A stretch of DNA of 64,000 nucleotides, taken from assembly GCA_000002435.2 (NCBI GenBank), contig CM018793.1; one strand, written 5' to 3'. Shown piece by piece: positions 16,146-50,433 of this stretch. A model generated the notes under the pieces. That model was not told the DNA's origin. It made no database searches and was given only the letters and a program-made list of their open reading frames with translations. The stretch comes from Giardia intestinalis. Its lineage: Eukaryota. The position numbers were made by a program, and so were the translations under genes. Positions within the stretch are counted from its first letter, which is position 1, and the number at the start of each line of letters is the position of its first letter.

Positions 16146-19100
16146 TCAAGGTAGGAACTTTGGGAGTGATGTGGTGCTAATGGCTGTCAATGCAGATCCT
16201 AGATGCATTCGAAGAGGAGCAGATTCCGACGAGTACTGCTCCCGGTAGGGTATACCTGCGTGGGGGGCGGGCTGCTTCACTGTTGTGATAATGTATTCAA
16301 GGAGATCTGCAAAATCAAAGTCCTTGAACCGAATGTAGTATTCGATAACATCAAATCCTCCAGCGTCCTTACAAAGTCCTTCTACCTGGGCTAGTAGCGC
16401 AGATGCTTCTCGTTGACGATATTCAGCCGCATAGTGGATTGCACACTTCCCCCTATTATCGCAAATGCCTGCTTCTAGGGGGGACAACAGCCGAATAATG
16501 CTTAGATGGCCGAACCGAGCGGCAGCCATGAGCGCTGTTCTGCCATTTCTATCTTGGAGTCTTGCCTCTGTGTTCATCAACATCTTTACCAAGGCAAGGT
16601 TGTTATTTGCAACAGAGAACATGAGTGCGCTGGCTCCGTTGAATTCAAAGCCTGAGAACCAGACCGTTGCGCTGCAGCGCGCCCCAGCTTCCTTTTGCAT
16701 AAGCATAAGGGCTCCTTCAACGTTTTCTCTGTCGCATGCAAACATCAGCGCAGTCATTTTAAGGACATCTGTACTTCCTGCCTGTGAGAAGAACTTCCTC
16801 ATACGTGGAATGTCATAAGTGGATGCAGCACTCATCAGCGTCGTGACCTCTTTTTCTTTATCGGCGTAAAATTCAGGGGCTGTGCATGGCATCTGCTCTG
16901 GAAGGGAGTCCTTAAGAGTTTCTAAGTACTGCACAACATCCCAATGCTCGTTCTGCAAGGCACGCAGGTATGCCGAGTCATTTGCCTTTGTCACGACACC
17001 AGCTTCGTGGACACACGCTTTGCAGAGCTCCAGGTTCCCTGCGGCGGCGGCAAAGATAAACCTTGTATAACCGTCTGCAGTTGTCTCTATTTTTGAAGAT
17101 GCTGAATGCGTTCTATTGAGGATAGCCTCGTGGTCGAAGAGTACTTCCCTGATGATGTCTGTTGCGTTATCTTTCTTGATAGCGTCACTCTCTTGGGAAA
17201 ATATGGTTGCTGCAAGCTGCTTAGAGCCAAGAAGCATACAAACCTTGGTGAAGTAGAGAGCTCCTTTGCCAGGGTAAAAAGGAACAAGCGCTGTGATGAT
17301 CTCAGACGCCTTTGTTAGACAGGCCTGGACCACAATGGTGTCCCAGTACTTCTCTATTATCGGACGACTGTGCCTAGCAATATACGATATTGTGTCCCCA
17401 GAGACATAATTCTGAATAGCCATTGACAACGCATTAACCTTGGAAGGATCCTTGTTAATTATTAGGAGATTAGATTGGTAGGGCACAAGAGCCTTAATTA
17501 TGCTATCATTCCTTAGCAGGGTTGCAGCCATTATCTCTGTTGTGCAGTACGAGTTCGTACAGTATGATATCTCCGTTGGAGTAGACTTCTCATCCAGTGG
17601 TAGCTTTCGTACCAGCCGTTTTACCAAGTGAAAATTGTCTGTTATAATCGCATACCGAAGTGAAGCCTGCCTCACCTTGTCGCTGTCAGAATAAAGAAGC
17701 TCCAGCTGGTCAACCACTTTGGCCAGCGGTACAACTCTGTACATCTCTCTGATGGAGCTGACATGTCTCAGCATGCTGATTGCGTTGTGAAGCTCTTGGC
17801 TATACCTATCTGTATGAGGTTCACGCGAGACTTGGGATTGAGTTCGCTGCATACCAAAGTTGTATTCCGTGTCCACCATGCTGAGATCACCCACCCCAAT
17901 CATAGACTCCATCTGAATCGAAAGCGACGGGGTCTCGTTGGCTGTTCCGTTCGAACCGGTCACCGAGGTATTTGGATTTTCTTGTTGCTCCTGGTCTACC
18001 AAAATATGTCTGGGCAGGGATGGATGCACAGGGTTGCTATTCTTAGTAAAGTTAGCAATGCTCACAGTAGCCCTTGGGCCATCTTTTGAGGTCACCAACT
18101 CAGGAAACGATTCGTCGTTGGGGATGGTAAAGGATGGACATGTCATGGACAGAAAACTATGTTCTACCTTGTCGCTCTTCTCGTAGTCTTCTTCTCTACC
18201 TTTATGGATAGGCCTGGTATCGCAAGAGTTTTTCTTCGACTCAGTAGCTTCGCTGGGCTGGCACTTGTGCTTGGTGCGTGCATAATTGCTTACCTGACTT
18301 AGGCTGATACTAGACAAGAAGTCACTAGTATTGATGGACAACATGCTGCCCATGTCTGTGTTGCTGCGCTGATGTCGTTTGTTGAATACGGTACTCAGCA
18401 CACGGTTCATTTGGACCGGAGTCATGAGGCTTGGGGGTAGACCCATTGGCGTGTGTGCCGTGCTCTGTAGCTCCGTGAGAGTCGTCATGATGGTGTGCAC
18501 TTTCTCCAGCAACCGCCTCATGATGTCATCTCTCATGAAAGCACTGGAGTCCTCCTCTGTGTCATCGTGAAGAAGAGAGTCCAAAGAAATAGACTCTCGT
18601 AGAAGCATGCTCATGATGTCTATCTTTATACAACCACGGGTATCCTCCATGTGCGGTAAAGAAGACACATAGTAGATGTTGTTCATGGAGAGATGAGTAC
18701 AGACTACCTCGGCAATCTGGAGACTTATGGAAAGAAGGTAGGTACAGAAAAGCAGGAGCTGCCCAAATATGGCCCAAAGCTCCTCTTCGTAAAGATAAAG
18801 ATTATTCTGCGCAGCTACGAACACATGTTCGCTAAGATATATGCCTTTGTAGTTCGGAACTATAAATATAATTTCCCGCTTCTTCAAGGAAAGCTTATAG
18901 CGCAAAATGGTCATCAATGTGAAGTGATCCAGCTTTGAAAGGTACTGGGCACATTTTAAAAGGAGATCTTCCTCGTACTTGGAACTGGCGTTATAAATGA
19001 AGACGTGCTGAAGCAGATTGAAGGAGTTGGACGGGGTACACTTAAATGAATACACGTCCTTCGGCCTTCTGACTTGCTTAAGAAAGGGCCTGAGGCCTGT

Positions 19101-19172
19101 TCTCAGCCCAGGCTTCGCCGTGCTAGGGTGAAGCACAACATGCTTAAGCTCAGTCGGCACACACGTGGCCAT
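16146..19172 (-). CDS. Ankyrin-repeat protein with a degenerate N-terminal kinase-like domain (Giardia NEK/21.1-type), ~1008 aa
   Basis: Track start is TTG; the first ATG is at 19172 (MATCVPTELKHVV...), with tttattttagaaagaaagtttgttg upstream. The C-terminal third is clear ankyrin repeats (GYTRFIFAAAAGNLELCKACV, MTALMFACDRENVEGALMLM, SALMFSVANNNLALVKMLM, GRTALMAAARFGHLSIIRLL, GKCAIHYAAEYRQREASALL). The N-terminal ~200 aa loosely resemble a protein-kinase fold (HLSMNNIYYVS ... CIKIDIMSM) but lack the catalytic motifs. Confidence 0.55.
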   Translation of the reverse strand: MATCVPTELKHVVLHPSTAKPGLRTGLRPFLKQVRRPKDVYSFKCTPSNSFNLLQHVFIYNASSKYEEDLLLKCAQYLSKLDHFTLMTILRYKLSLKKREIIFIVPNYKGIYLSEHVFVAAQNNLYLYEEELWAIFGQLLLFCTYLLSISLQIAEVVCTHLSMNNIYYVSSLPHMEDTRGCIKIDIMSMLLRESISLDSLLHDDTEEDSSAFMRDDIMRRLLEKVHTIMTTLTELQSTAHTPMGLPPSLMTPVQMNRVLSTVFNKRHQRSNTDMGSMLSINTSDFLSSISLSQVSNYARTKHKCQPSEATESKKNSCDTRPIHKGREEDYEKSDKVEHSFLSMTCPSFTIPNDESFPELVTSKDGPRATVSIANFTKNSNPVHPSLPRHILVDQEQQENPNTSVTGSNGTANETPSLSIQMESMIGVGDLSMVDTEYNFGMQRTQSQVSREPHTDRYSQELHNAISMLRHVSSIREMYRVVPLAKVVDQLELLYSDSDKVRQASLRYAIITDNFHLVKRLVRKLPLDEKSTPTEISYCTNSYCTTEIMAATLLRNDSIIKALVPYQSNLLIINKDPSKVNALSMAIQNYVSGDTISYIARHSRPIIEKYWDTIVVQACLTKASEIITALVPFYPGKGALYFTKVCMLLGSKQLAATIFSQESDAIKKDNATDIIREVLFDHEAILNRTHSASSKIETTADGYTRFIFAAAAGNLELCKACVHEAGVVTKANDSAYLRALQNEHWDVVQYLETLKDSLPEQMPCTAPEFYADKEKEVTTLMSAASTYDIPRMRKFFSQAGSTDVLKMTALMFACDRENVEGALMLMQKEAGARCSATVWFSGFEFNGASALMFSVANNNLALVKMLMNTEARLQDRNGRTALMAAARFGHLSIIRLLSPLEAGICDNRGKCAIHYAAEYRQREASALLAQVEGLCKDAGGFDVIEYYIRFKDFDFADLLEYIITTVKQPAPHAGIPYREQYSSESAPLRMHLGSALTAISTTSLPKFLP

Positions 19173-19207
19173 CAACAAACTTTCTTTCTAAAATAAAGGT
19201 GTACGCC
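19173..19207. promoter_or_regulatory. 35-bp divergent spacer shared by the ankyrin/kinase-like gene (-) and the copine-like gene (+)
   Basis: caacaaactttctttctaaaataaaggtgtacgcc is the entire intergenic sequence, and its AT-rich core (ttctttctaaaataaagg) is centred between the two ATGs. Confidence 0.45.
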
Positions 19208-19993
19208 ATGGCATTCAAGTCATGTGTCAATAGAGGAGGGTTCAAGCAGATTAAAGAAGTATACAGGAGCTTTCCAGAGTTGACTCTCGCTCTCCGTGAA
19301 GCCAGCATGGAAAGCTCGCAGATCATCTTGGCATTCGACTTTTCAAAATCCAATGAATGGTCTGGGGAAAAGACGTATCGGCGTAGTTTGCACGACATTA
19401 CTCAAGAAACCCCTTATGAGAAGGTGTGCAGGCTTCTTATCCCGGTAATAACGTCATTCGACTCGGACAGCATCATCCCTGCTATCCGGTTTGGCTGTAG
19501 CGTATCAAAAGATCAGATAGTTTGCCCTCTGAACCCTTACTCCAAGTCCCCGGAGTGCCAGGGCTTTGCGGAGGTTCTGCACAACTATCGCGAGGCTGTC
19601 AGGATGGTGAAGCTTTCGGGCCCGACGTCTCTCAGCCCCGTGGTTCGGTACGCGATTAACATCGTGAAGAAAACCCGGGAATATCACATTCTGATCATCC
19701 TTACTGACGGCGACCCCGTGTCCAGCGTGGCAGATGCAGATGCAATCGCTGAGGCATCCAACTACCCCCTCTCCATAGTTGCTGTTGGGCTAGGTGACGG
19801 CCCATTCAAGATTCTCCAGTCCTTCGACACACAGTATTACAACAGACGCTTCGATAACTTCCACTTTGTCAATTTCACCGAGTTGGAGACTAAGTTTATA
19901 AACAGCAACAGACCCGACCTGCTTTTGGCAACAGAGCTCTTTGTAGAGATTCCAAAGCAGTACAGAATAATAAGAAAACTTGGCTTGCTCTGA
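19208..19993 (+). CDS. Copine-type vWA (copine A-domain) protein without C2 domains, 261 aa
   Basis: Track start 19199 is GTG; the ATG is at 19208 (MAFKSCVN...). Matches the copine A-domain: ILAFDFSKSNE (AIDFTASNG), RRSLHDI, NPYEKV, GPTSLSPVVRYAINIV (GPTNFAPVI), YHILIILTDGDPVSS...AIAEASNYPLSIVAVGLGDGPFKILQSFD (QYFVLLIITDG...AIV.AS.LPMSIIIVGVG.A.F..M..LD). Confidence 0.65.
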   Translation: MAFKSCVNRGGFKQIKEVYRSFPELTLALREASMESSQIILAFDFSKSNEWSGEKTYRRSLHDITQETPYEKVCRLLIPVITSFDSDSIIPAIRFGCSVSKDQIVCPLNPYSKSPECQGFAEVLHNYREAVRMVKLSGPTSLSPVVRYAINIVKKTREYHILIILTDGDPVSSVADADAIAEASNYPLSIVAVGLGDGPFKILQSFDTQYYNRRFDNFHFVNFTELETKFINSNRPDLLLATELFVEIPKQYRIIRKLGLL

Positions 19994-20091: not shown

Positions 20092-20604
20092 TTACCAGTT
20101 TCCCTTGGCCTCTTCCTCTGCAATAGCGTCCCTCCAGGCATCCACTGCCCGTTTAAGATCGAAGGCTATGTTGTACAACGTGTTGTCTGTATATTGCTTA
20201 AACGATGGTAGCTTGTATATGTAGTTCTCATCGTTGATATAGTAATACATTTCACATGGATAGCTCAGCAGCCCCCCTTCGGGCTCCACGCAATACCCAG
20301 CTATCAAGGCCCGAGATGGGGTATAATCCTGGATCTTGTACAAAATCACCTTCCCACTGTCCAACTGCTCTCTCGTGAACTCCTCCGAGAGGTGTGACTT
20401 GTCCCTAATCCAGTCCTCGAGTGTTGTCGGTCTCTGATTTTTGGTCTTTATGTTGACGCAGTACTCGTTTTGCTGGCAGAAGGGAGAGTGACGGAAGTAA
20501 GCTAATAGGCGGTCCTGCTCCGTATAGTTCTCACCTGCAAGCTCGTCGTTGTTATTGTAGAGATCGTTGTCGCACCATGAAAGAACCAGCCTCTTGCGGT
20601 CCAT
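20092..20604 (-). CDS. Hypothetical protein, 170 aa
   Basis: ATG at 20604 preceded by cacccaaaaaag. No recognisable domain (MDRKRLVLSWCDNDLYNNNDELAGENYTEQDRLLAYF...). The coding call rests on ORF length, the typical start context and tight packing with its neighbours. Confidence 0.4.
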   Translation of the reverse strand: MDRKRLVLSWCDNDLYNNNDELAGENYTEQDRLLAYFRHSPFCQQNEYCVNIKTKNQRPTTLEDWIRDKSHLSEEFTREQLDSGKVILYKIQDYTPSRALIAGYCVEPEGGLLSYPCEMYYYINDENYIYKLPSFKQYTDNTLYNIAFDLKRAVDAWRDAIAEEEAKGNW

Positions 20605-20662: not shown

Positions 20663-23600
20663 TCACAGTAGCTTGGCAAAGGATAGCATGTCGCCATATG
20701 CATTGAAGATCCCTGAGCTCAACTCCTTAAAGGAGAGGAGGTCAGCCACAGGGATCGTGTTCAGAATGGTCAAAATGGATGATATCTCCTTTCGTACGAC
20801 AATGATGGTGTATGTGGCGCACACTAAAAAGGCTCCTATCATGACCCCGTAGACAGTGCTGACGGCCAACTTGATATTTCTCATCTTGAACACTGGACTA
20901 ACATATCCCTCCATGATCTTGTTTATGTCACCCAGGGTGAGGTTTGTTATGCCTAGATAGTCGTCCTTATCATACACATCCGATAGTCGGATCCTTTGGT
21001 TGACTTTGTCGGCTGCATCCCAGATTCTCTTCCGCACCTCTTCCGTTGCGACTAGGATGCTCGTGGTATAATTGATGAGGAGCTCCTTTATGTCATACAT
21101 CCCAGTGCTGTTTGTATAGCTAAATCCTGGCAGTAGCATGGTGGCTGCTGACTGGGCCACCTTTGCATATTCATTGAGGTTCTGTATGCGAGTATACAAC
21201 TCGCTGATATGCATTTCTTCATACGACAAGTCTGTGTTCTGCAGAGTTGCCAGTGTTAAGTTTATGAGACGCGAGTTAATGAAGACGTTTCCCAAGGAGT
21301 TGTAGAGCCTGGTCTCCGTCCACCGTTTGGTTTCGTCCGTTGTCACAACCTCAACCCTGAACATGGCCATCAATAGACTGATCAGCAAAACGAATATTAG
21401 TACGATGAAGGCACCGACTGTCAGTCCAAAACTGAGTGCAAGGCTGTGCCTGTGGGTAGTCATTATCTTGAAGACGACAAGGCCAGTCCTTGTAGGCGCA
21501 AACTGCAAGTAGACGTAGAGCAGAACCAACAAGATCACATGTATCACAAGAAACCATGAGATGATACGCTGCATAAGAACCAAGAAGTTATCTATTTGAG
21601 TCTCGACAGCAAGAATCTGTCGCGTCAGAGAGTTAGTTGTCAGCTCGACTTTATGTGAAAACAAGAGTAAGTTCTTGAATAGGATGTTGCTCCCTTTTGA
21701 GATGGATTTTATGTATAGATGGAGCTCCTTGTCAGTTAGACTCTTTAGTCTAGCGTATGAATATATCTCAACGCAGTTTGTCGGACCCGCACATAGAAGG
21801 TAGTCTTCATAGTACGATGAGTACTTCTTGTCTGGTACCGGCTTACTAAAGTTGAAGACTTCGTCTAGATAGACATCGGCTGTGTACTGCTGGATTTTCT
21901 CTGGAAACATTTCCCTCGGTAGTATACACATGCGTGCCAGCGCCACGTTAACCGAAAATACCGCGTGGCGGATATTATAGTAGAGGTCTAACATCTGGTC
22001 TGTGTCGATAAAGGGCTTGATACTCTCGACTGCGTCTACCAGATGGAACTTGGTATTGAGCATTACTGGTCGCTGCAGGGCCACATAGATATCTTCGCAG
22101 GCATACCTGTAGGCTTGATTGGCGTCGTCCCACTCCAAGCTGGCGAGTTGCATGTTATAATCACCAAGAGATTCCAGGAGTTGCAGTCCTAAGCTGTTCA
22201 ACCGAGAGCTAGATACGTATATGCGCGTCATGTGTGAGACTGCCACCTTATTGTTAAAGAACTGCGTGAAGCTGGCCACTATTATTGTGATAATTACAGC
22301 GGCAATAAGTGATGCTAATACAGCAAAGAATCGGGGTAAGCTCCTATAAGAATAAAGGTCAACCCAGACAGGGCTTCTTGGGCGAGTGGTCTTAGGTATT
22401 TTGACTCTGGGTGCTGAGAAGTGGTGTAGCACTAATAAAGTAACAGGAACACAGCTCAGAAGGAGAAGAAGCGAGAACAAGTGCTCAGTCGTTATGTTCT
22501 TCTCATCCAGCTGCTTATTGATCGATGTTGATTCCCGCTGTTTGGCTATGCTGTTCATGAGAAGCATGCTGTGAAACGCTGTGAGCTCCGCACACGGGTC
22601 CTTCCCCCTCAGCTCTGCATAGGATGGTTGGAGGATGGAGAAGCTGTTATTATAAACGCTCCTCTGCATCTCTATGAATGCCTTTATTCCGACTGTTTCC
22701 TTTTGGAGGTTCTGCCGGTTGAGCATCGGCTTGTATACCTCAAATGGCGGCAGAAGGAGGGCAGCCTTGTACTCATTCTCTTTGAAGGTGGGTGGCGGAG
22801 ATGATGAGGCCCCGTAGTCTAGTACAAACATTACATACTTACTGGCAAGGTTGCTGTACTGATTGATGATCATAGAATAGTAATCGTAAGATGGGCTGCG
22901 GACAGACATTGTATAGAGATAGATGAGCTTTTTTGTGACGTCAGCAAATCGAATGTCCCTGTCAAGGACAAATGGAGCCAAATGCGGATTCTTGATGGCA
23001 CGGGAGCATGTATAGTATAGTCTATACGGCTCTGTCTCTGGCTCTGTAGGGGTTATGCTTGTGTGCTGGGAAATAGACAGGTCTACCAGCAGTGTATCGA
23101 GAATGAGGTCCTGAAGGAGAGCGTAGTTTTGTCGAAGCCATGTGAGCCTCCACTGTGGACTGGCATATATAATATGTTCTGAATTATCAATGTAGTCATG
23201 AGTGGATCGACATTCCTGGCTTTCTGCAGGGCTTGTGGCCTTCTGCAAACAGCTTTCAAATCTAACCACGTCTCCTATTGTTTGGTACGCTGGAGTAACG
23301 TGTATTGGCTCGATATCGTTGCTCCAAGGTTTATTGTAAAACGTGGGATCCAAGTCCTCATCGGGATATCGCATGGACTCAATAACGGATGCATAATATG
23401 GGCCAATTCCTGTCTCCGTGTAGGAAATAATTGGAATGGAGTGGAATATGTACAGTAGTACCATGCTTAACCCTATACATAGTAGAACAAATACCTTGGA
23501 AATGGCCCAGACGACAGATGGCCTGTCATATTGCGCAGAAAACGTCTTGTATAGTTCTACTAGTCTGCTATAGTCGTATCGGTAAGTGAGCTTGCCCTGC

Positions 23601-26600
23601 ATATCACCAAGAGAAGAGCTGGTGTAACACGCACTGCTAGATCCTGATAGCAGGTTGGAGCTGCCGTCACTGGAGGAGCTGCTAGCTTCTGTCTTGGGTT
23701 GCTGCTCAACACACAACTGTGGGGGACACCTTCTCAGCAGCATATCTTTCTCTGCAGTTACCTCAGAGTGCATGGACACAAGATGCTCAAATGTCGGAGT
23801 GTACTTCACGTTCTGGTACGCAAAGTTGATCCGTTCTTTAGAATAGAACTGTGCAAATAATAGCCTATAATCAAATCGTGCTCCTGTTCGTGACAGAAGA
23901 TTGAGCAGAAGGTCAGAAAGGTTTTGAAGACGAACCAGAAAGATATTATAGCTTGAGAAGGTGAAAATAAGACAAAAACCTACTGTTCCCGTTAGCGCCA
24001 TCAAGAGTACCTTGAGGTGCGTAGAGAAGTTCTGTATCAGCAGAGAAGATGTTGCCACGGTGAACATGCTGTTCCAAACGAACGGCACGATATTGATGTA
24101 GATATTGGATCGCACACCTTCTATCTTACTTTGGATGCACTCGGTAATCAGTTGATGGTTGTTTATATTCCAGAGGCTCAGCTTGTCTAGTGCCTGCGGA
24201 GGTGGAAAGCAAACGAGCATATCCTTATACGGGTTCTGAAATACAATTGTGCCGTAGATACGTGTGGGAATCGGGGTTGGTATGAATGAAACCATCTTAT
24301 TAGAGACCTTTAGAATGTGGAAAAAGGGATGAATTGAAGAAAAAGCATACTGCTCTAGATCCAGGCCTAGGTTATAGATTTTTTGAGACATATCTTCATA
24401 TATGTCGGATATGCTTAGGTAGTACAGCTCCTCTAAGTCCTTTGGGGTGAAAAATGTGTCTATCGGCTCCTTATTGACCACTCTCTGGGAATAGCTATCG
24501 TATATTTTCATAAAGGCGATCTCGTCCGCTTGAACAACAGCGGCAAAAATACTGGCGGCCTCTATGACGGAGTCGTTATACATAAAGACTCTGCTTGCCT
24601 TGTTGATAATGAAGAGAGAGACCACAAAGGCAAGTAACGAAGCAACAGTGTATGCGAGGTTTTCAGGGTTGAACACCGTTATTGATCTAATTATGTCTTG
24701 ATGTTTGTTTAATAAAGTTTTAACAAACCTCTTTGCAGAACTCTTTGTGGACCCCAATGAGTCATGGAATCCAGTGGTGAAGAACCGGCGCCAGAGGCGA
24801 CGGCTTTTCTTAGATCTGCTTCTGGTTTTGCCATCTTTTTCCATGGAGGTATCGAGTGCTGTGGACAAAATGGCCATGTGGTTAACTATATTTATGGAAA
24901 CCGGCGATACCATTAGTGATGCCTCTGCACCCTTTATATCGGCATATGTTCTGTACTCACAACGCTGAAGAGACAGGGGGTTGTCAACGACTGCATAGTG
25001 GCAGTAACTCAGGCATGGGGGCAAAATCACTATGGACCCCTCGGGAGTATACGATATGTAGAAGGATTGTATGGACCGGTCCTGTGTGAGGATAAAATTC
25101 TGGATGTAGTTTCGGACGGTTCTGACCGATTCACAACAACTATCCTGTTGTATCAGGGGCGCTCCTGGAGATATGTGATCTACTAGCACTGACTTTGTAC
25201 GCGTTTGACCGAAACTAGAAAGAGAAAGGGTGGAGAACGTGCCAGTGGCAGGGTCATCCGAGTGCGCAGTGGACTCTTGCTGGCTAGACACGGGCGAGTC
25301 CGGTAATTGCTTGATATCAGATCCATCAGTGACATCAGAATCGTCGCTATCCTGTTCTTCTAGTGCATCCTCGGGTGAAATAGCAGAATCGTGACTGCTG
25401 GTGGAGGAGTCAACGTCAGAGCTATCGGATATCATTGACGATGTACGCCTCCTCATATAATCAGAGTGGAAAAGGGAATTGTTTAGGTTGCTGAGCTCCT
25501 TGTTATTTAAGGATGGCTGAATATGGCTAATGAGGGGGAAGATGCTGAGCTGGTTAAGCGGCCAGATGGTGTTATAGAGCTCGTGATAAACCCATGCAAG
25601 TGTGTGCGTGGCAGTGACACAGTAAGGGTACGCTATGTACAATCGTTTCGCCTGCTCAACGATGTCCTGATACATCACATTCTGTTTGTTGCATAGCACC
25701 ATAAGCTCTTCAAGTCTGACGGTGGAGAAGTGGCAGTCCTGCTTTAGGTTATTGCTGAGCTTCGTGATACGATCAATATTTGTCAGACACGTATCCGCAT
25801 TCTCAAGGATCCTGCCCAAGATAGAGTTTATGATCATACAGGAGCAGATGTTCATGGGCCTCGTATTCGCTAATTTCGGGTTCGCAAAGTATTTGTACTT
25901 GGTAGGTGGAGCAAAATCCAAGGCATTCGCGTAGTCGCGTTCGACCTCGACAAGATCCTCCTTATTACTAATACACTGAGAGATAGAGTCGTATATATTG
26001 TCTAGGCCCAAGTACTTGATAATCTTGAATCTACTCAGCTTTCTAAGAGTGCCATGGAACTGTTTCATGGTTGACATTGGGGTAACATCGGGATTGATCT
26101 GCTCATTAAATATTGCACTGACATCTTTCGGTGTAGAGAGGTAAGGGGAGGCGATGGAAAGGGGCGTTGCTATGCTCGTTATTTTCTTGGTACCTTCACA
26201 GATTGGTGACTGATTATCAGATATACCTTGTTGCTTGTACATTTCTTGAGGAGGAGTATCATCCAGATAGAAGAGCCTGCTGGGATCGAATAGTCGTCTG
26301 AACTGGGGGTGTAGATCCTTGGTGCTCATCTTAACAAGAACAAACCCGCAGCACGAATAGAGAAGTGTTTCAAGCAAAGCGTTTAGGGACCAAGCGGATC
26401 TGGTGCTAAGGTCTAGCTCCGGAGAATCAAACACTAGGTCTCGGAGGAATTGTGGGGAGAGCTGCTGGATAATCCACTGAAGCTTTGACCGACAATCCTT
26501 GAGATTTGCAGCAGAACTGGCAAGAGTATCCTTAGAGCCTCGTGAGAGGTGATGAATAGAGAACGTCGGCCTGTGAAACAGCCACCTCTTCCTGTTGTTA

Positions 26601-28516
26601 AGTGTAAGATGCATGGTATCATTATCACGCCTATAGACACGCAAAGGTATATGTGATTGCTCAGAAACTTCAGTACTTGTGTAGCATGCTATATTGTCGC
26701 TCAAGCGGTTCAAAGAACGCTCCTTTCTTTCTGTGACTGTGATGGATGCGAGCTTCGGCTGGACTCCAGACTCACTAGCGTTAGGCGACGGGGCATTCAA
26801 GTCTGAGTAGCCCACGTCCGAAACGTCTATCGTGGCAAGATCTTCCTTCTCTGTGGGGGTAACCGGAGAACTTCTTCGGTACTGCTGAACATTGATGAGC
26901 ACGGATGACTTGGCAACTTCGTCACCCTGCCCATCTGGATAGATACAGGCCTCAGAAGGTGATCTATCCTGCTTCTGTGGCTCTTTTGCTTCAGCATTCG
27001 TCTTGCCTTGCTTAAGATGACTTTGTGATTCAGGACTGGACTCAGACCTCTGCTCCGAATTCAACAGCATTGGCTGATTGATCAAAGAGTGCTCTGTGCT
27101 CTTGAGGATCATTAGCAGAGAAAAAATCTCCAGTAGGTACATGTTGATTTCGTACACGATATGTTTGTCTTTATTGATAGATGCAGTGACTCCGCGCAGG
27201 TCTTCCTGTGATTGCGAATCCTCCTCTTTGGGGGCATCTAGAAATGCACGGAGCACCTCGCAATCAAGCATGTCCAGAATAAGGCATATGTATGCCAGTT
27301 TTTTCTGTTTAGAACATCTAGCAATGCACCCATGGGCTTGCTTTGTGCCGCGCCTATAGTCACGGAAGCCTATCTTATTAGTCGCTGAATCTAGCCTCAA
27401 TGAATTGTACAGAGCGATGATGTAGCAGAGACAGATGTTTTCTAGCGCTACATAAAATCTTCCGTCTGTAATTGCGACACGCTTTATATGGGATGTGAAA
27501 AGTAAGAGGCTATTGTAGAGCATCTCCGGGGTCAGGGATACTCCGGTGTAGGTATAGTCTCCGTTGTGAAGCCTGACTATTGCCGCCTGCTCCCTTCTGT
27601 ACTTGCGGATGACAAAAGTATAAGATAACAAAAATGTGAAGCATGCCCAACAAAGCACTGTCACGGTGTAAATCATGAAATGGTTGGTCGGCACAGGTAT
27701 GATAGTCATTACAATCCCCACCAAGTTGAGTCCAGAAAGCAAGCATAGAATTGCGATAATGACCGGAGTCAAAAAGCTGCAGAAGGGCACGATACAGTTA
27801 ATGATAATGCTATATGTTACAAACACAAGAACAAAGCCGTGTAGGCACCTGGATGCAATCATCCAGTTGGAAAGGCCGCGCATAAAGCCAATAAACACAA
27901 TGTACAGGGGGCCCATCACGAAGGAGATGATATAGGGCACTGCAGCAGTTAGCAGATACTGGATTGGGGTGAGGACAAACGTTGTAGACGCATAAAACAA
28001 AGACATGTAATTGAAAATTGTAAAATAGAAAATACTAAGGATTGCTACGATGAGATGGCAAAAGAACAAAGTAAATCTCTTTTGGATTGCATTGTAGAAT
28101 AATAAAAACGACGACCCAAAGGCGTATATCAATCTAATGCTTGTTAGAAAGTAGAAGACTAGACGCTTAGCTCGGGCTGCTTGATAGTTTGTGTTCCCCT
28201 TTGTCAGAGAGATGTGTAGAGCAAGAGAAAGGACAAACCCCATAACTAGAAAAGATGCCTGGAGTGAAACGACGATGGTAAAGAAGATATAAAGGCCCCA
28301 CGGGAAGGTGACCTTAAGAAAAATGTCATTAGGCCGTATGTAGCTAGTGATACAAAAAGCCAGAAGGAGGTAGAAGAAGATCTGATTCAAAAGCACGCTA
28401 ACAAAGAAGGGCCGACAGATGCTGTATTGACGCTTGCCAATGAGAAATGTAACAAGGCGCCTTCGCGAAAGACGCATTATGTTCTGCCAGCTTTGGCTGG
28501 TGCGCGGGGTCTTCAT
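20663..28516 (-). CDS. Very large multi-pass transmembrane protein of unknown family, ~2617 aa
   Basis: Track start 28582 is GTG; the first ATG is at 28516 (MKTPRTSQSWQNIMRLSRRR...), with a second ATG at 28477. About 10 hydrophobic helices lie in the first ~420 aa. A Ser/Asp/Glu-rich soluble region of ~800 aa follows. Further predicted helices occur near residues 1240, 1440, 1620, 2060, 2100, 2330-2400 (three) and 2580. No P-loop, S4-type RxxR array or other channel or transporter signature is recognisable by eye. Confidence 0.55.
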   Translation of the reverse strand: MKTPRTSQSWQNIMRLSRRRLVTFLIGKRQYSICRPFFVSVLLNQIFFYLLLAFCITSYIRPNDIFLKVTFPWGLYIFFTIVVSLQASFLVMGFVLSLALHISLTKGNTNYQAARAKRLVFYFLTSIRLIYAFGSSFLLFYNAIQKRFTLFFCHLIVAILSIFYFTIFNYMSLFYASTTFVLTPIQYLLTAAVPYIISFVMGPLYIVFIGFMRGLSNWMIASRCLHGFVLVFVTYSIIINCIVPFCSFLTPVIIAILCLLSGLNLVGIVMTIIPVPTNHFMIYTVTVLCWACFTFLLSYTFVIRKYRREQAAIVRLHNGDYTYTGVSLTPEMLYNSLLLFTSHIKRVAITDGRFYVALENICLCYIIALYNSLRLDSATNKIGFRDYRRGTKQAHGCIARCSKQKKLAYICLILDMLDCEVLRAFLDAPKEEDSQSQEDLRGVTASINKDKHIVYEINMYLLEIFSLLMILKSTEHSLINQPMLLNSEQRSESSPESQSHLKQGKTNAEAKEPQKQDRSPSEACIYPDGQGDEVAKSSVLINVQQYRRSSPVTPTEKEDLATIDVSDVGYSDLNAPSPNASESGVQPKLASITVTERKERSLNRLSDNIACYTSTEVSEQSHIPLRVYRRDNDTMHLTLNNRKRWLFHRPTFSIHHLSRGSKDTLASSAANLKDCRSKLQWIIQQLSPQFLRDLVFDSPELDLSTRSAWSLNALLETLLYSCCGFVLVKMSTKDLHPQFRRLFDPSRLFYLDDTPPQEMYKQQGISDNQSPICEGTKKITSIATPLSIASPYLSTPKDVSAIFNEQINPDVTPMSTMKQFHGTLRKLSRFKIIKYLGLDNIYDSISQCISNKEDLVEVERDYANALDFAPPTKYKYFANPKLANTRPMNICSCMIINSILGRILENADTCLTNIDRITKLSNNLKQDCHFSTVRLEELMVLCNKQNVMYQDIVEQAKRLYIAYPYCVTATHTLAWVYHELYNTIWPLNQLSIFPLISHIQPSLNNKELSNLNNSLFHSDYMRRRTSSMISDSSDVDSSTSSHDSAISPEDALEEQDSDDSDVTDGSDIKQLPDSPVSSQQESTAHSDDPATGTFSTLSLSSFGQTRTKSVLVDHISPGAPLIQQDSCCESVRTVRNYIQNFILTQDRSIQSFYISYTPEGSIVILPPCLSYCHYAVVDNPLSLQRCEYRTYADIKGAEASLMVSPVSINIVNHMAILSTALDTSMEKDGKTRSRSKKSRRLWRRFFTTGFHDSLGSTKSSAKRFVKTLLNKHQDIIRSITVFNPENLAYTVASLLAFVVSLFIINKASRVFMYNDSVIEAASIFAAVVQADEIAFMKIYDSYSQRVVNKEPIDTFFTPKDLEELYYLSISDIYEDMSQKIYNLGLDLEQYAFSSIHPFFHILKVSNKMVSFIPTPIPTRIYGTIVFQNPYKDMLVCFPPPQALDKLSLWNINNHQLITECIQSKIEGVRSNIYINIVPFVWNSMFTVATSSLLIQNFSTHLKVLLMALTGTVGFCLIFTFSSYNIFLVRLQNLSDLLLNLLSRTGARFDYRLLFAQFYSKERINFAYQNVKYTPTFEHLVSMHSEVTAEKDMLLRRCPPQLCVEQQPKTEASSSSSDGSSNLLSGSSSACYTSSSLGDMQGKLTYRYDYSRLVELYKTFSAQYDRPSVVWAISKVFVLLCIGLSMVLLYIFHSIPIISYTETGIGPYYASVIESMRYPDEDLDPTFYNKPWSNDIEPIHVTPAYQTIGDVVRFESCLQKATSPAESQECRSTHDYIDNSEHIIYASPQWRLTWLRQNYALLQDLILDTLLVDLSISQHTSITPTEPETEPYRLYYTCSRAIKNPHLAPFVLDRDIRFADVTKKLIYLYTMSVRSPSYDYYSMIINQYSNLASKYVMFVLDYGASSSPPPTFKENEYKAALLLPPFEVYKPMLNRQNLQKETVGIKAFIEMQRSVYNNSFSILQPSYAELRGKDPCAELTAFHSMLLMNSIAKQRESTSINKQLDEKNITTEHLFSLLLLLSCVPVTLLVLHHFSAPRVKIPKTTRPRSPVWVDLYSYRSLPRFFAVLASLIAAVIITIIVASFTQFFNNKVAVSHMTRIYVSSSRLNSLGLQLLESLGDYNMQLASLEWDDANQAYRYACEDIYVALQRPVMLNTKFHLVDAVESIKPFIDTDQMLDLYYNIRHAVFSVNVALARMCILPREMFPEKIQQYTADVYLDEVFNFSKPVPDKKYSSYYEDYLLCAGPTNCVEIYSYARLKSLTDKELHLYIKSISKGSNILFKNLLLFSHKVELTTNSLTRQILAVETQIDNFLVLMQRIISWFLVIHVILLVLLYVYLQFAPTRTGLVVFKIMTTHRHSLALSFGLTVGAFIVLIFVLLISLLMAMFRVEVVTTDETKRWTETRLYNSLGNVFINSRLINLTLATLQNTDLSYEEMHISELYTRIQNLNEYAKVAQSAATMLLPGFSYTNSTGMYDIKELLINYTTSILVATEEVRKRIWDAADKVNQRIRLSDVYDKDDYLGITNLTLGDINKIMEGYVSPVFKMRNIKLAVSTVYGVMIGAFLVCATYTIIVVRKEISSILTILNTIPVADLLSFKELSSGIFNAYGDMLSFAKLL

Positions 28517-28839
28517 CGACAATACCACACTTGGCAATTTGAAACCTTTTTTGCCTGATGTCGAGGGCCAATCGATCCTCACTTGTACCTCTGCTTGTAG
28601 ATATGCTCTTAGGCGTTATGGATGCAGAGCCCTTTGAACCCCAAAGCTCGCAGGTAGTGGTGGGGTACATAGCCGAGCGAAATATGACCACAGCTGCCTC
28701 CCAAGACCCTTGTCCTAGTACCTATGGACATTAACTAATGAGCTAGTTTGGTTATCGTCCGAACCAGGTAGAAAACAGGCAGTGGTCGAGTGGGTGACGT
28801 TTGTTAGACTTAATGCTGAATGATAGAAAGCTTGCTAAT

Positions 28840-28856: not shown

Positions 28857-30560
28857 TCACTCGTTATTGATGGCGGCAAATACGGCATCCAATGTCCGCA
28901 TCTGCTGCTGGATTGTTTCTGACTTCTTGCTAAGCTTAATTACATCCCGGAAGCACATAATGAAGCTGGTGACGTTTGTAGTTATCTTCGTAAGGTCCTT
29001 CATGATGGCCCCTGTCACCTCATCGTCTGTCAAGGACCCATTGGCCACAGCACCAGTCTCCGAGTCTGGGTTCGTTGCAATGCGAACTGAAGTCTGACAG
29101 ATAACCACTACGACGAGTGTTACTGTTAACAGGATGAACGCTTGATCTAGCTCTTCTGTATATGAGAGGACGTCCATGACGAAAAGTGAAAGCTCAAAGG
29201 AAACCTTGCTAAACACCGTTAAAACGCAGCTAGATGTAACAGCGGGTATAATCTCAAAGATTGTATCGAAATTGGACTTGAAAAGGTTGTGCGCACGCTG
29301 GCGAAGCTGTCTGTGCAGTGCTGTCACTTGGGGGGTCTCTGGGGCAGAGTCGCAGGCAGTAAGCGTGGCTTCGTCGATGCTCACAGTAGTGGCCTCTTCA
29401 ACAGCATCAGAGGTATTGCAATCGTTTGCGCTGGATGATCCTTGGGTTACTGCCCTAGCACTGCCATTGAAGCTATGAGCAGACGAAGCCATTGGAGCCA
29501 AGACCTGCTTATCGGTACAGAAGTTAAAATATGCCTCATATCCCTCGAAACCATAGTACGCTAGCCCCAGAGGCTCCCTCGTCTTGACCTTCTTCCTATT
29601 AAATAGGCTGGTGACTCGTTGAGTTTGGGTGCAATCGATAGAGTCTAAGCATTCACCCGAGAGAATAAGCGAAACAATCTTTATGACTGCACAGCTAACG
29701 GTATCAATGCGCTCCTTTTCCATCAGGATGAATGAGCGATACACATTGCTCATCTTAGTGACCCTTAGAGCTATCCCTACGGCTTCATAGAGGGTTCTTG
29801 AATACAGAAGCGTGACGCCACACAGGTATGTTAATCCTTGAACATATGGCGTCTTGCTGCTGCTTATGACAGCAACCAGGACGTCACAGAAGGAAGGGAA
29901 AAGGGGAGAGTTCGTCTCAAATAGCTTTAACTCTCTAAAGGTGCGGTGGGCATCAGCCATAAGGAGTCTATTGCCCCGGACATAAAAGACACTCCACACG
30001 TGACCCTCTGCCTCGTATATCTTATCGATAGGTATAAGTGCATCGCTGGAAAGGACTGACCCGTCCTCCTGAGTTCGATAGCTGTTGTAGTATCCTGCTT
30101 CCATGGCTGCAGTATCGACATTTAAAGGCATTGTGTGCGTAAGAGGACTCGCCAGTATCTTCTTACATATGACTTCTGCCTCCTGGGTGTACTTGAGTGT
30201 CAAATACGTCCACGAGGCACGTCTGAAATATGCTGGGATCTCCCCATGCTGCATCAGCAGGGCAGTTAGTCCTTCAAGGGTCTCGGCTGAGGGAGATTGA
30301 TTGAGCAGGCGCGACCAGGTGAGATCAGCGAGAGCTCGGAGATCTGGAGTGTTGAAGCAAGAAGGTTTAGTAGTAGTTGGTACAGGGATATTTAAAACCT
30401 GAAGGGTCCCGTTACGCTTTGCAGCAAAAGCAACCTCCGATTGGACGGTAGTCTCTTCAAACTTTGCGACGTAAGCATCGATGACCCACAGAGGGATGTC
30501 CTTGTTCCTTAGCAGTACTCCAAGGATCCCGATTTGCTGTTGTTTGCCGATGACGTTCAT
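28857..30560 (-). CDS. Hypothetical protein, 567 aa
   Basis: ATG at 30560 with caaaaaactcaaaaaaaccttaaatcgg upstream. No domain recognised with confidence. A Ser/Thr-rich central segment and a C-terminal hydrophobic stretch (LTVTLVVVVICQTSV) are present. Confidence 0.45.
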   Translation of the reverse strand: MNVIGKQQQIGILGVLLRNKDIPLWVIDAYVAKFEETTVQSEVAFAAKRNGTLQVLNIPVPTTTKPSCFNTPDLRALADLTWSRLLNQSPSAETLEGLTALLMQHGEIPAYFRRASWTYLTLKYTQEAEVICKKILASPLTHTMPLNVDTAAMEAGYYNSYRTQEDGSVLSSDALIPIDKIYEAEGHVWSVFYVRGNRLLMADAHRTFRELKLFETNSPLFPSFCDVLVAVISSSKTPYVQGLTYLCGVTLLYSRTLYEAVGIALRVTKMSNVYRSFILMEKERIDTVSCAVIKIVSLILSGECLDSIDCTQTQRVTSLFNRKKVKTREPLGLAYYGFEGYEAYFNFCTDKQVLAPMASSAHSFNGSARAVTQGSSSANDCNTSDAVEEATTVSIDEATLTACDSAPETPQVTALHRQLRQRAHNLFKSNFDTIFEIIPAVTSSCVLTVFSKVSFELSLFVMDVLSYTEELDQAFILLTVTLVVVVICQTSVRIATNPDSETGAVANGSLTDDEVTGAIMKDLTKITTNVTSFIMCFRDVIKLSKKSETIQQQMRTLDAVFAAINNE

Positions 30561-35079: not shown

Positions 35080-38000
35080 CTAGTCACTCCTTTGGATGAA
35101 GGCGGCTGCCCCGCGCAGGATCCAGTGCCTCGGGTCTTTGCTCGTCGGAAGATGCATGTTTAGGACGTAGTTGGTGCTGGTGCCTGTGGTAGAAAGAACC
35201 CCATAGCGAAGAGTGGTAGTGTACAGGGGCATAGCATACATCTTCTCTTTGTCAAGTTCTGTGCACGGGGCAAACCAGACAGGCCCCAGGCTAGTGATCA
35301 TCTGTCCATAAACAGGCTCTGTCAACTCCTTGGCCTCCGCGTCCCACTGAGCAGACTCAACATAGAGCCCAGTGATAATCAGCCCGGGGTCGTTCCGGTC
35401 TGGGGCAACCATGGTGTCGACTTCCGTGGTTGTAAGAACGGTGGTGGAGATGGCCAGGGCATCGATTGGTATTCCCTCAATGCGAGAATAATGCTGAAGC
35501 TCAGCAGTGAGAAGTCCGTGGGGGAAGAAGAAGGCACCTATCCAGAAAGTCTTGGGCACGTAGCCCTTGATTTGCCAGCGGAAGTCATCGACTCGGTAGT
35601 CGACTCCTTTCTCTCTGTCCAGCTCAATCCAATCGGCCATAAACTGCACCCGATCGATCAGATCCACAATCCACGAGCTTAGTGGCTTGAGCGTGGGATA
35701 ACAAACATCTGTTATCATCCGTGGAATCTTGTTCAACAAAATACACTGATAGACGTCCTCCAACTGGGGAGACATGATCGCCAGTCCTTTAATTGCCTTC
35801 CCCACGTCCTGAAATGCAACTCGGACAAGAGCCAGAAGCTTGTTATACCGTTCAGATTCTTGCTTGAGAACTGCGTAAAGAGGAGAGGGCATCTTGACCG
35901 CCTTTCCGTTGGACACCACTGATATCCGCGGAGGAATGTGAATGTTGCTTGGCAGTAAGTCTGCGGGGATGCGATCGAAGAGGCTGCTAGCGAATTTAAG
36001 GACCTGTTTGTCTGCTGGAGACATAGACTCGTCGTCTCCACCGTCCTGGATCTCCGGTTCTTGGCCTTTGCTGCTAGCGTCGGACTCAATTGCGGGTGCT
36101 TTGCTCTGTGCCTTTGCGCTCTCGATGCGCTTCTTGCGCTCCTCATTTTCTATGGCAACGTCAGCCTCCTTAGGAGACATGGAAAGCACTGAATCTACTA
36201 TAAGGTTGGCCTCGGAATGCTGATAGGTAAGCTCTGCATTAGCGTGGAGCCCAAATAAGCTTGGAGACGCCTCCACAGGAAATTCGTGGGTGAGCCACTC
36301 TATAGTCGACGCCAGGCTCATCTCTGGGTTGGGAGCTTTGTACACCTTTCCACTTGGGGACACCTTGCTCTCCTGACCCTCCTCTAAAAAGAGTTCTGGT
36401 TGGTCGGTGAAGAGCTCTGGATTGATGATGCATGAAAGGATTGCATTAATGCAGCGTTGGTCTAGGGAATCCGTAACGCGTCCTCCGAAGGCAATAACCC
36501 CTACCATGTACTGAAGGGTCTGGTAAGGCACTGCGTTGGAGAGGGACTTGAGGAAGTTCTGGCCAGATGACTGCCCAAGTATGTTTGATGTTCCAACGGT
36601 TGACTCAGTTAGCTGCAGTGCAACGGCACTATCCACAAGATATTGACGGATGAACTTGCGGCTTATTTCCAGATCCGGTATGCTGAATTCATACGGGTTA
36701 TTATACGCAACAGACCCAAACCTTTTACGCTCCAAAAGAGACGAGTAGAAGAACGCAACACCGAAAATAAGCCTGTGCCAGTGACGGAGTACAGCAGGGG
36801 CCTCTGGAACAGAGTCGTGGAGCTCTTCAGTGAGACCCATATAAGAGAGAATCAGATTGGCCTTGAGTCCACGAGGAGGCTCGTGTGAGATCTTGACAGA
36901 TGAAGAAAGGACTGACTGAGGGAACTTCGATGTGGGAAGGGATGTGAGGAAGAGGCGGAAGTCCCTGTTGATTGCTGCACCAGTGATATCACATCCATCT
37001 TGATCCATGGTTGCCAAGTTCTCTACGAAGCGCGCGAGGTTTGGCATCCAGCTGAGACAGAGGTGGCAATTCTGAAGACAGACCCAGTCGCCTTCGATAA
37101 TGGCGCGGGCGAGCATTCTTTCTGCGATGACTCCCTGACCCTGACCAAGTGAGAGTGTCCGCAAACCCTTGTCTGCTCCCTTTTCCTTTGAAAAAGCCAC
37201 CAGCTGTGCGTGCGGGTCTGTCCCTGCACTCAGCACGAAAATAGTTGGAGTAGAAAAGCTGGTATCCAGGTACGCCTGCTCCATACGGAACTGTGGAGGC
37301 TGGACATAGTACTCTCCTATCGTGTCTGCAATATATTGAGGAATGTAGAACATCAAACGACCTGGATTGATCGCCTTTAAGAGCATAAGGCGCTGGAACG
37401 GAGCAAGCGACCTGATAAAAGCACTAACTGACAGGGAGAACGGGCGCTTTCCGTTATAATTTCCACGAGCCATATCGACAACCAGCTCCAGGTCATCACT
37501 TTCTAACCATGCTTTCCAGCCCTCAGGATCATCACGCGACGAGGAAAGGAATTCGTCATATGCCAGACAGGCATGTAAGACCTTATATATGGCATTGATG
37601 TTTGCATACTTAGAGCCATCCTGGCCAAACTGAAGAGTGGCAAGCATATGAGAATAAAAGTCATCGGGCACTTCCGACTGTTTTTCGTTGATTTCCACGT
37701 TCTTGAAGATGGCCCATTCCCTGCCAGTTAAAGCCCCTGAGGCACGCTGAATGGAGACGGCAACCATAAAGCTGAAGATCCGCTTATGTTTTTCGAAGAT
37801 GCCTCTGCATATAGCTCCGTAGGCTGCCTCCGTGATGGCGGATATCATGCTTCCTATTTTTCTCTGTAGAATTGCACTCTCATCACTTTCGAAACTGGCA
37901 TCGGCCGCTAGTAGCCTATCAGGAACTCCAATATTGGACTCTGCCATTTGGTTACGTTGGCTCTGCTCATCGTCGTCCAACAGCAGCCCAGCCGAGGCCG

Positions 38001-50000: not shown

Positions 50001-50433
50001 CGCCCACGAGTCTCTCAGATGTAATAATCTTCTTGGTTTCTGCATTACGGGTGCGCAGAGTCTTAGACGCATTTGATATAATTGCTGGGCGCGCATTCTT
50101 GAGCATCCCAGGCGGTAGGGACGCTTCTGAGTGCATCTCAAGGCGGTGCAGAAGACTGCCTGGAGCCCCTCGAATCGTGCACTCCCCGGTCCCGAGCGTC
50201 CGGGTGCATGCGCAATCAAGGGTTTCGTCGGCTGGTGTGATATGTGCTGGTCGCACAGGGTCGAGGTCGAAGGGGGCATACTCCTCCTCGTTGTACGTGA
50301 AGAGCTGATCGGAGAGATGCGGCGTTTGGCGCGATGCGTGCTCCTGGGCTCTCACCAGCTCCATGAAGTACTCTGCGCTGGATGCGTGCCTAGGGGCACC
50401 CTCGCGACGGGCCGGAGTGTCTTGGCGAGACAT
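35080..50433 (-). CDS. Dynein heavy chain (motor domain with AAA1-AAA4 P-loops), 5117 aa, single uninterrupted ORF
   Basis: ATG at 50433 with gacaaaaaagc upstream. AAA1 reads [75 protein letters not shown], matching the canonical DHC Walker A and CFDEFNR signature. AAA2 is [15 protein letters not shown] and AAA3 is [14 protein letters not shown]. A long N-terminal tail and coiled-coil stalk are present. Several acidic or Ser-rich low-complexity insertions likely explain the large size. The subfamily (axonemal versus cytoplasmic) was not resolved. Confidence 0.9.
   Translation of the reverse strand: [5117 protein letters not shown]

Follow-up and report, generated by a model that had tools for sequence, protein, structure and literature searches.

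Among the described membrane proteins closest in size or layout to the one considered here, Piezo proteins possess ~38 transmembrane (TM) helices, with nine repeated 4-helix units and a pore module built as outer helix, beta-rich cap and inner helix. Prominin and TTYH proteins possess 5 TM helices and a short cytosolic C-terminal tail, the loops between helices being by turns short and cytosolic or long, extracellular and mostly helical, whereas Patched, NPC1 and Dispatched (RND-type) are known for a sterol-sensing domain and a 2x(1 + loop + 5) TM pseudo-symmetry, and ABC proteins, ABCA included, for a pair of nucleotide-binding domains that carry Walker A/B and ABC signature motifs. In the gut parasite Giardia, extreme divergence of proteins is frequent, and lineage-specific orphans are common. 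Here we evaluated a stretch of 64,000 nucleotides of Giardia intestinalis DNA (GenBank assembly GCA_000002435.2, contig CM018793.1; hereafter the window), in which the minus-strand open reading frame (ORF) at positions 20663-28516 is GL50803_15478, a genuine, single, uninterrupted gene of G. intestinalis WB that encodes a protein of 2,617 amino acids (aa). Its product is a Giardia-only orphan membrane protein, and the best explanation overall, which we put forward tentatively, is that it acts as a non-enzymatic membrane scaffold or receptor.

The identity of the gene follows from its frame and from public records. The minus strand is stop-free over window 20663-28582, or 2,639 codons counted from a GTG, a run whose probability of arising by chance we roughly estimate at (61/64)^2639, or ~e^-127. 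The first ATG lies at 28516, with an A-rich stretch directly upstream, and the frame ends in a TGA stop codon at 20663-20665. The resulting length equals that of the public GL50803_0015478 entries (XP_001708818.1, UniProt A8B7J1; ‘hypothetical protein’, Giardia intestinalis WB), which share a 90%-identity cluster with a representative that matches the ORF at 99% identity, and the only annotations attached to the gene are ‘hypothetical protein’ and ‘putative membrane spanning protein’. A published supplement assigns it to chromosome 5 (PMC8700996). Public models differ in their start (window 28244-28582): GiardiaDB and NCBI begin at ATG 28516 (2,617 aa), some begin at the upstream GTG (2,639 aa; ESU37970.1, labelled ‘partial’), and gene calls made on read archives begin at Met92 (2,526 aa), which would remove TM1 and most of TM2. 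Because residues 1-91 are conserved in other assemblages, we consider ATG 28516 the sensible start, and an earlier reading of the window from its letters alone (hereafter the original prediction) had given both coordinates and length correctly (20663-28516, 2617 aa).

Evaluating relatives of this gene, we found full-length, colinear orthologues (2,601-2,637 aa, 61-84% identity) in four other lineages of the G. intestinalis complex. These comprise assemblage E (GLP15_3627, 83-84% identity), assemblage B (GL50581_4253 and others, 68-70%) and two further lineages known solely from read-archive assemblies (66-67% and 61-63%). The latter two (contig 597 of ERR3333381, our locus L002, and protein P0004) diverge more (61-67%) than does assemblage B (68-70%). 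Further out, an exhaustive profile search revealed a G. muris orthologue, annotated ‘putative membrane spanning protein’ (2,094 aa, E 1e-41; our locus L001, CM016925.1, 126448-148732), that is colinear from the N-terminal helix block to the final residues, with 39% identity over residues 880-1007, 24% over 1787-2611 and 20% over 1152-1555. This orthologue is ~520 aa shorter, and the residues that it lacks map to poorly conserved stretches within ~400-900 and to 1001-1100. Since nearly all of the length difference sits in disordered or acidic Ser-rich cytosolic spacers, we interpret these spacers to represent expansions of the G. intestinalis complex. Full-length colinear similarity, including the 8 C-terminal TM helices and the tail, unites GL50803_15478, GLP15_3627, GL50581_4253 and the G. 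muris protein in one orphan family, and the gene is single-copy. The single-protein call of the original prediction is borne out by these orthologues, G. muris included, and there is no assembly fusion.

Searches for relatives elsewhere returned Giardia alone. Pfam-A hmmscan with the protein at E<=10 and with three orthologues at E<=10 or E<=1 gave only sub-threshold chance matches (we rejected U5_2-snRNA_bdg, 15.7 bits vs a cut-off of 33, as well as TMEM132_C and C8), while phmmer and two profile searches against PDB sequences gave nothing below E 0.5. An exhaustive hmmsearch with residues 1440-2617 against 1.84e9 representative proteins yielded 3 matches, all from Giardia, and word-index searches queried by the protein, by its G. 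muris counterpart and by a profile spanning the full length matched Giardia proteins exclusively. Profile searches found nothing in other eukaryotes, other metamonads included, from a library that includes EukProt entries, and a Joint Genome Institute (JGI) metagenome scan gave 50 pattern matches, 0 of which were confirmed. As far as HMMER reaches (with residues 1440-2617 for the exhaustive search), the family is restricted to the genus Giardia. A motif scan of the protein, in turn, found no Walker A/B, S4-type arginine array, K+ selectivity sequence, Piezo PFxxE(6)W, DHHC or EF-hand. The original prediction had seen no recognisable family and no nucleotide-binding motif, voltage-sensor arginine array or pore signature, and had allowed that this could equally be a lineage-specific protein; all of these statements hold after the Pfam, PDB, exhaustive and metagenome searches and the motif scan. 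No test run links GL50803_15478 to a known family, and a new mechanism does not follow from that.

We predicted the membrane architecture from Kyte-Doolittle hydropathy on six orthologues combined with DSSP helices of AlphaFold models. The consensus is 16 TM helices, with 8 in residues 34-303 and 8 in the C-terminal half, and the aligned positions in G. muris recover all 8 of the C-terminal segments and 6 of the 8 helices in the N-terminal block. The stretch at 453-471 passes the hydropathy threshold in WB, and we left it uncounted because two Glu lie within it and three orthologues are not hydrophobic there. The multi-pass protein with large soluble insertions that had been proposed is thus confirmed, with fewer helices than the 18-20 first suggested, and with 8 (all within residues 34-303) rather than ~10 of them in the first 420 aa. 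Net charge is +8 in the N-terminal tail, +4 and +2 in the short loops 2037-2057 and 2343-2355, and -7, -8, -4 and -2 in the four long loops (186, 310, 220 and 152 aa, respectively). Exactly two cysteines occur in each of loops 1-3, invariant out to G. muris (C1436/C1460, C1837/C1975, C2140/C2197), and loop 4 has none. N-x-S/T sequons are conserved among G. intestinalis lineages at 6 of 9 sites in the long loops, compared with 2 of 5 sites in the two long regions on the cytosolic side. Hydropathy, charge distribution and the conserved cysteines lead us to infer 16 TM helices with both termini cytosolic and the four long, mostly helical hairpin loops (150-310 aa) on the luminal or extracellular side, the simplest reading of the cysteines being that loops 1-3 probably hold one disulfide each on this non-cytosolic side. 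The features of the gene and its predicted product, in window coordinates where given, are as follows.

20663-28516, minus strand: complete coding sequence of GL50803_15478, 2,617 codons plus TGA; frame open upstream to GTG 28582, first Met at ATG 28516.
28418-28516, minus strand: N-terminal basic tail, residues 1-33, with 8 K/R and 0 D/E; predicted cytosolic by the positive-inside rule.
27608-28417, minus strand: compact 8-TM block, residues 34-303; all connecting loops short.
Residues 34-60, 66-105, 111-144, 148-179, 184-213, 218-242, 249-269 and 278-317: N-block helices by DSSP, from the AlphaFold model.
27092-27607, minus strand: conserved juxtamembrane cytosolic helical region, residues 304-475; begins with invariant RKYRREQAAIVRLHNGDY and holds the ENICLCY motif.
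26525-27091, minus strand: poorly conserved region, predicted to be without secondary structure, residues 476-664; mostly missing in G. muris.
25517-25879, minus strand: best-conserved cytosolic module, residues 880-1000; predicted antiparallel three-helix bundle, predicted local distance difference test (pLDDT) 50-60.
25217-25516, minus strand: residues 1001-1100, low in complexity, acidic (net charge -15) and rich in Ser (26 Ser); absent from G. muris.
Residues 1285-1312, 1499-1530, 1665-1699, 2010-2036, 2058-2089, 2310-2342, 2356-2394 and 2547-2576: predicted C-terminal TM helices TM9-TM16.
23927-24664, minus strand: hairpin 1, with TM9 1285-1312, loop 1 1313-1498 and TM10 1499-1530; C1436 and C1460 are the loop's sole Cys, invariant.
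23525-23926, minus strand: cytosolic linker, residues 1531-1664; very strongly conserved juxtamembrane helix QNLSDLLLNLLSRTGARFDYRLLFAQFY, then a Ser-rich disordered stretch.
22409-23524, minus strand: hairpin 2, with TM11 1665-1699, loop 2 1700-2009 and TM12 2010-2036; loop mostly helical, C1837 and C1975 invariant.
21491-22345, minus strand: hairpin 3, with TM13 2058-2089, loop 3 2090-2309 and TM14 2310-2342; C2140 and C2197 invariant, pLDDT 55-78.
20789-21451, minus strand: hairpin 4, with TM15 2356-2394, loop 4 2395-2546 and TM16 2547-2576; helical, with three N-x-S/T sequons conserved among G. intestinalis lineages.
20666-20788, minus strand: C-terminal tail, residues 2577-2617, strongly conserved and predicted to be cytosolic; it closes with …GIFNAYGDMLSFAKLL, which can still be discerned in G. 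muris as …GLLSAYGDLLRL.

Between the N-terminal block and the first hairpin lie residues 304-1284 (~980 aa), which are near neutral overall (net charge -1, with 111 K+R vs 112 D+E) and hold 11.9% Ser vs 10.2% in the whole protein. The well-conserved modules within this region (304-420, 880-1000, and a small beta/alpha unit at 1150-1200) are among the best-conserved segments of the protein, and we interpret the region as presumably cytosolic, with conserved helical modules mixed with fast-evolving disordered and acidic Ser-rich spacers. What had been described as an ‘800-aa acidic Ser-rich loop’ survives as residues 1001-1100 alone, the rest including well-conserved modules. On the C-terminal side, strong conservation is also seen in the juxtamembrane helix after TM10 (residues 1531-1558). 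Within the helices of the N-terminal block, R128 and H226 are invariant in six sequences, though the G. muris alignment is weak there, and T125 is a further invariant polar residue inside the block; the block's 270 aa hold one acidic residue, which is not conserved in G. muris.

Structure models were built with AlphaFold2 on residues 1-1200 and 1418-2617 from 6-sequence alignments. The only part of these to reach pLDDT 55-78 was hairpin 3 (residues 2059-2339), in which TM13 and TM14 are modelled as helices of 67 and 78 residues that extend into a bundle of helices also containing two small beta hairpins. Foldseek against the PDB gave no match below E 0.2 for either model, and the matches to the N-terminal half were generic three-helix bundles (e.g., syntaxin Habc). 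These fold results justify describing the model as a bundle of helices held between two TM helices, and they give no support for homology. Comparing the four C-terminal hairpin units with one another by hhalign revealed no significant repeat, the best pair being hairpins 3 and 4. In that pair, residues 2082-2128 align with 2381-2426 (window ~22133-22273 and 21239-21376) over 46 columns, just after the first TM helix of each, at a non-significant E of 0.047, a weak similarity that could be the trace of an ancient duplication or chance.

To the sequence evidence we can add expression. GL50803_15478 is among 149 control genes listed as unchanged during encystation, with values of ~7-8 (apparently log2) at every time point (PMC8700996 Tables S1, S3A), and a second RNA sequencing (RNA-seq) set places its expression at ~6.3-7.7, with little variation in metronidazole-resistant lines (PMC8866875). 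Transcription is constitutive, moderate and steady, and its flatness through encystation argues against an encystation-specific role.

We favor a non-enzymatic scaffold or receptor because signatures of catalysis, nucleotide binding or a pore are absent and because the best-modelled ectodomain is a helical bundle whose outer helices are continuous with the flanking TM helices. As a possible mechanism, the four ectodomains would engage partners in the lumen or outside the cell, or one another, and would be mechanically coupled via the continuous helices to a cytosolic platform. This platform, possibly phospho-regulated, might bring in partners from the cytoskeleton or from trafficking, within a membrane system peculiar to Giardia. 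Several observations weigh against this interpretation. The role of scaffold or receptor is itself an inference, held at low confidence; the topology derives from simple hydropathy and charge rules; the models are poor, with mean pLDDT of 34 (residues 1-1200) and 40 (residues 1418-2617); and the invariant intramembrane residues R128, H226 and T125 would equally fit a transporter, channel or membrane enzyme. From the literature, we found no records of localisation, interaction or phenotype and no main-text mention under any identifier (matches to ‘15478’ were GL50803_115478 or PubMed ids). The gene is absent from four proteome or interactome supplements (PMC3986054, PMC7058353, PMC3044749, PMC7332775), three of them proteome sets, of which two cover organelle-enriched fractions.

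The best-surviving alternative, which we regard as unlikely, is an unrecognisably diverged pan-eukaryotic multi-pass protein, whether a prominin/TTYH-type pentaspan fused to additional helices, or an NPC1/Patched-type or ABCA-type protein from which domains have been lost. Identity is ~24% even between G. intestinalis and G. muris, low enough that more distant relatives could readily escape HMMER. Over residues 1665-2576, the way in which short cytosolic loops take turns with long helical ones also recalls prominin/TTYH, and TTYH2 is present in the Foldseek list (7p5m_A). That match, however, is noise (E 3.1, probability 0.04, TM-score 0.05-0.13), and the protein gave no Prominin, Tweety, Patched, sterol-sensing or ABC match in Pfam and no Walker A/B motif. 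Profile searches were empty in other eukaryotes, metamonads among them, and the number and order of helices, at 8 + 4x2, match none of the candidate families.

Less probable still, in our assessment, is a very divergent ion channel, Piezo-like mechanosensitive channel or lipid scramblase, in which a pore or groove would be made by the TM helices and the large loops would serve as caps or gates. A length of 2,617 aa with many TM helices suits such a protein, as do the polar R128 and H226 that are invariant inside the 8-TM block, and the last hairpin with its short conserved tail superficially recalls an outer-helix, cap, inner-helix and C-terminal-domain layout. The niche would also be vacant, given that an earlier survey found neither Piezo nor MscS homologues in Giardia (PMC3681921). 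Against these points stand 16 TM helices rather than ~38, the lack of a repeat among the four hairpin units by hhalign, and the absence, even at E<=10, of Piezo, anoctamin, OSCA, TMC or any other channel family in Pfam. Motif scanning found none of PFxxE(6)W, the K+ selectivity sequence or an S4 array, no PDB channel matched by sequence or by fold, and the loops are predicted to be helical, unlike the Piezo beta-sandwich cap. The original prediction had placed the protein in the range of Piezo-type, other giant channel or scramblase-like proteins, an idea for which the helix count, the empty Pfam search, the missing motif and the generic folds give no support. The AlphaFold and Foldseek check that it had recommended returned low-confidence models, generic helical bundles and no channel match. 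With models of this quality, the lack of support for a channel is an absence of evidence.

Bolder, and in our view a long shot, is that GL50803_15478 represents a new Giardia-restricted class, with four tandem TM/helical-bundle/TM sensor-like modules wired to an 8-helix core. Such a protein might be a receptor for several inputs, or might supply the mechano- or osmosensitive channel missing from an organism without recognisable Piezo and MscS, and would probably reside at the interface of the ventral disc or flange with the plasma membrane or at peripheral endocytic compartments.

We give a slim chance to the 8-TM block being a membrane-embedded enzyme or transporter (acyltransferase, or GT-C-like glycosyltransferase) with the remainder of the protein serving to regulate it or to handle substrate. 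The block is compact, its loops are very short and it holds an invariant intramembrane Arg and His, and the large luminal or extracellular domains might conceivably handle a polymer. Yet no Pfam or PDB similarity to a membrane enzyme or transporter was found, and GT-C-type catalysis is opposed by the sole acidic residue of the block not being conserved in G. muris. One version, a synthase of the cyst-wall N-acetylgalactosamine (GalNAc) polymer, we rejected, as known encystation genes are strongly induced whereas the transcript level of this gene is unchanged during encystation. Weakest of all, with next to no probability in our estimation, is an annotation or assembly artefact (two fused genes, or a non-coding open frame): automatic callers do differ on the start (2,526, 2,617 and 2,639 aa versions) and mass-spectrometry evidence was not found in the proteome supplements searched, but the same full-length frame occurs in independent assemblies of at least 5 G. 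intestinalis-complex lineages and in G. muris, conservation spans the first TM helix to the last residue, the transcript is seen in two independent RNA-seq studies, and a stop-free run of 2,639 codons cannot be chance.

Returning to the Giardia-only scaffold or receptor, its size, full-length conservation and four-hairpin layout make GL50803_15478 a reasonable candidate for further study despite its ordinary orphan status. It offers a possible handle on Giardia-specific membrane biology (attachment, endocytic compartments, osmotic sensing). Were it essential, its large size, constitutive expression, restriction to the parasite, conserved non-cytosolic domains and lack of a host homologue would make this membrane protein a candidate target for drugs or vaccines.

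The surrounding genes fit the published gene order 15476, 15477, 11696, 15478, 11700 (PMC8866875). Immediately downstream, a 170-aa ORF, GL50803_11696 (‘hypothetical’; window 20092-20604, minus strand), gives a sub-threshold Med6 match (E 5e-5, 23.5 bits vs a cut-off of 27), and the 174-aa gene that adjoins the G. muris orthologue is unrelated to it. Further downstream, window 16146-19993 holds an ankyrin-repeat protein (1,010 aa, minus strand) and a copine/vWA protein (264 aa, plus strand), an order kept in the ERR3333381 locus and not in G. muris. Upstream, a 567-aa ORF, GL50803_11700 (‘hypothetical’; window 28857-30560, minus strand), gives a borderline Rab-GAP TBC match (E 2e-5, 24.8 bits vs a cut-off of 25.2). 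Gene order in the ERR3333381 locus is exactly as in the window, and the neighbours in G. muris are unrelated genes, leaving no synteny there. We dropped gene neighbourhood as a functional clue, this being a eukaryote whose neighbouring genes (ankyrin protein, copine, Med6-like, TBC-like) are functionally unrelated. Elsewhere in the window, a 915-aa ORF (54458-57205, plus strand) carries two WRKY DNA-binding domains (E 7e-28), WRKY being a transcription factor family of the plant type. At 5,117 aa, the window's largest gene (35080-50433, minus strand) encodes an entire dynein heavy chain, with DHC_N2, AAA modules, microtubule-binding stalk and Dynein_C. It is probably the IAD-5 inner-arm dynein heavy chain GL50803_111950, which is listed nearby in a published gene-order table.

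Comparing GL50803_15478 with the systems described at the outset, we see resemblances of layout without membership. It is like Piezo in overall length, in its many TM helices and long soluble insertions, and in ending as TM, loop, TM and short tail, but it has no Pfam Piezo domain or PDB sequence match, 16 helices, no hairpin repeat and a helical last loop. Prominin and TTYH share with it the alternation of loops and the short cytosolic C-terminal tail, whereas it has 16 TM helices vs their 5 and no Pfam match, and the TTYH fold comparison is a Foldseek E of 3.1 from a model with mean pLDDT 40. Membership among ABC or ABCA proteins fails on the absence of a Walker A/B pattern and of an ABC_tran Pfam match; among Patched, NPC1 and Dispatched, on the lack of a Pfam match and on a helix order of 8 + 4x(1 + loop + 1); and among membrane adenylate or guanylate cyclases, on the lack of a Guanylate_cyc Pfam match at E<=10 and of a PDB sequence match. 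The periplasmic four-helix-bundle (4HB) sensors found in bacterial chemoreceptors and histidine kinases (e.g., Tar 1lih, PcaY 6s18, Adeh_2942 4k0d) come close in that a helical bundle of ~130-220 aa lies between two TM helices that are continuous with its first and last helices, as predicted by the hairpin 3 model. The fold is generic, with de novo designed bundles, FlgL and cytochrome b562 scoring equally, and the hairpin 3 model is of low confidence. GL50803_15478 also differs from these sensors in having no HAMP, kinase or methyl-accepting domain by Pfam in the protein or its orthologues, and in being a eukaryotic protein with four tandem hairpins and an 8-TM block, such that the resemblance is one of layout. 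Its nearest company is that of other hypothetical lineage-specific Giardia proteins, with which it shares the ‘hypothetical’ label, fast evolution and the absence of relatives beyond the genus, and among which it is unusually large, polytopic and conserved along its whole length out to G. muris.

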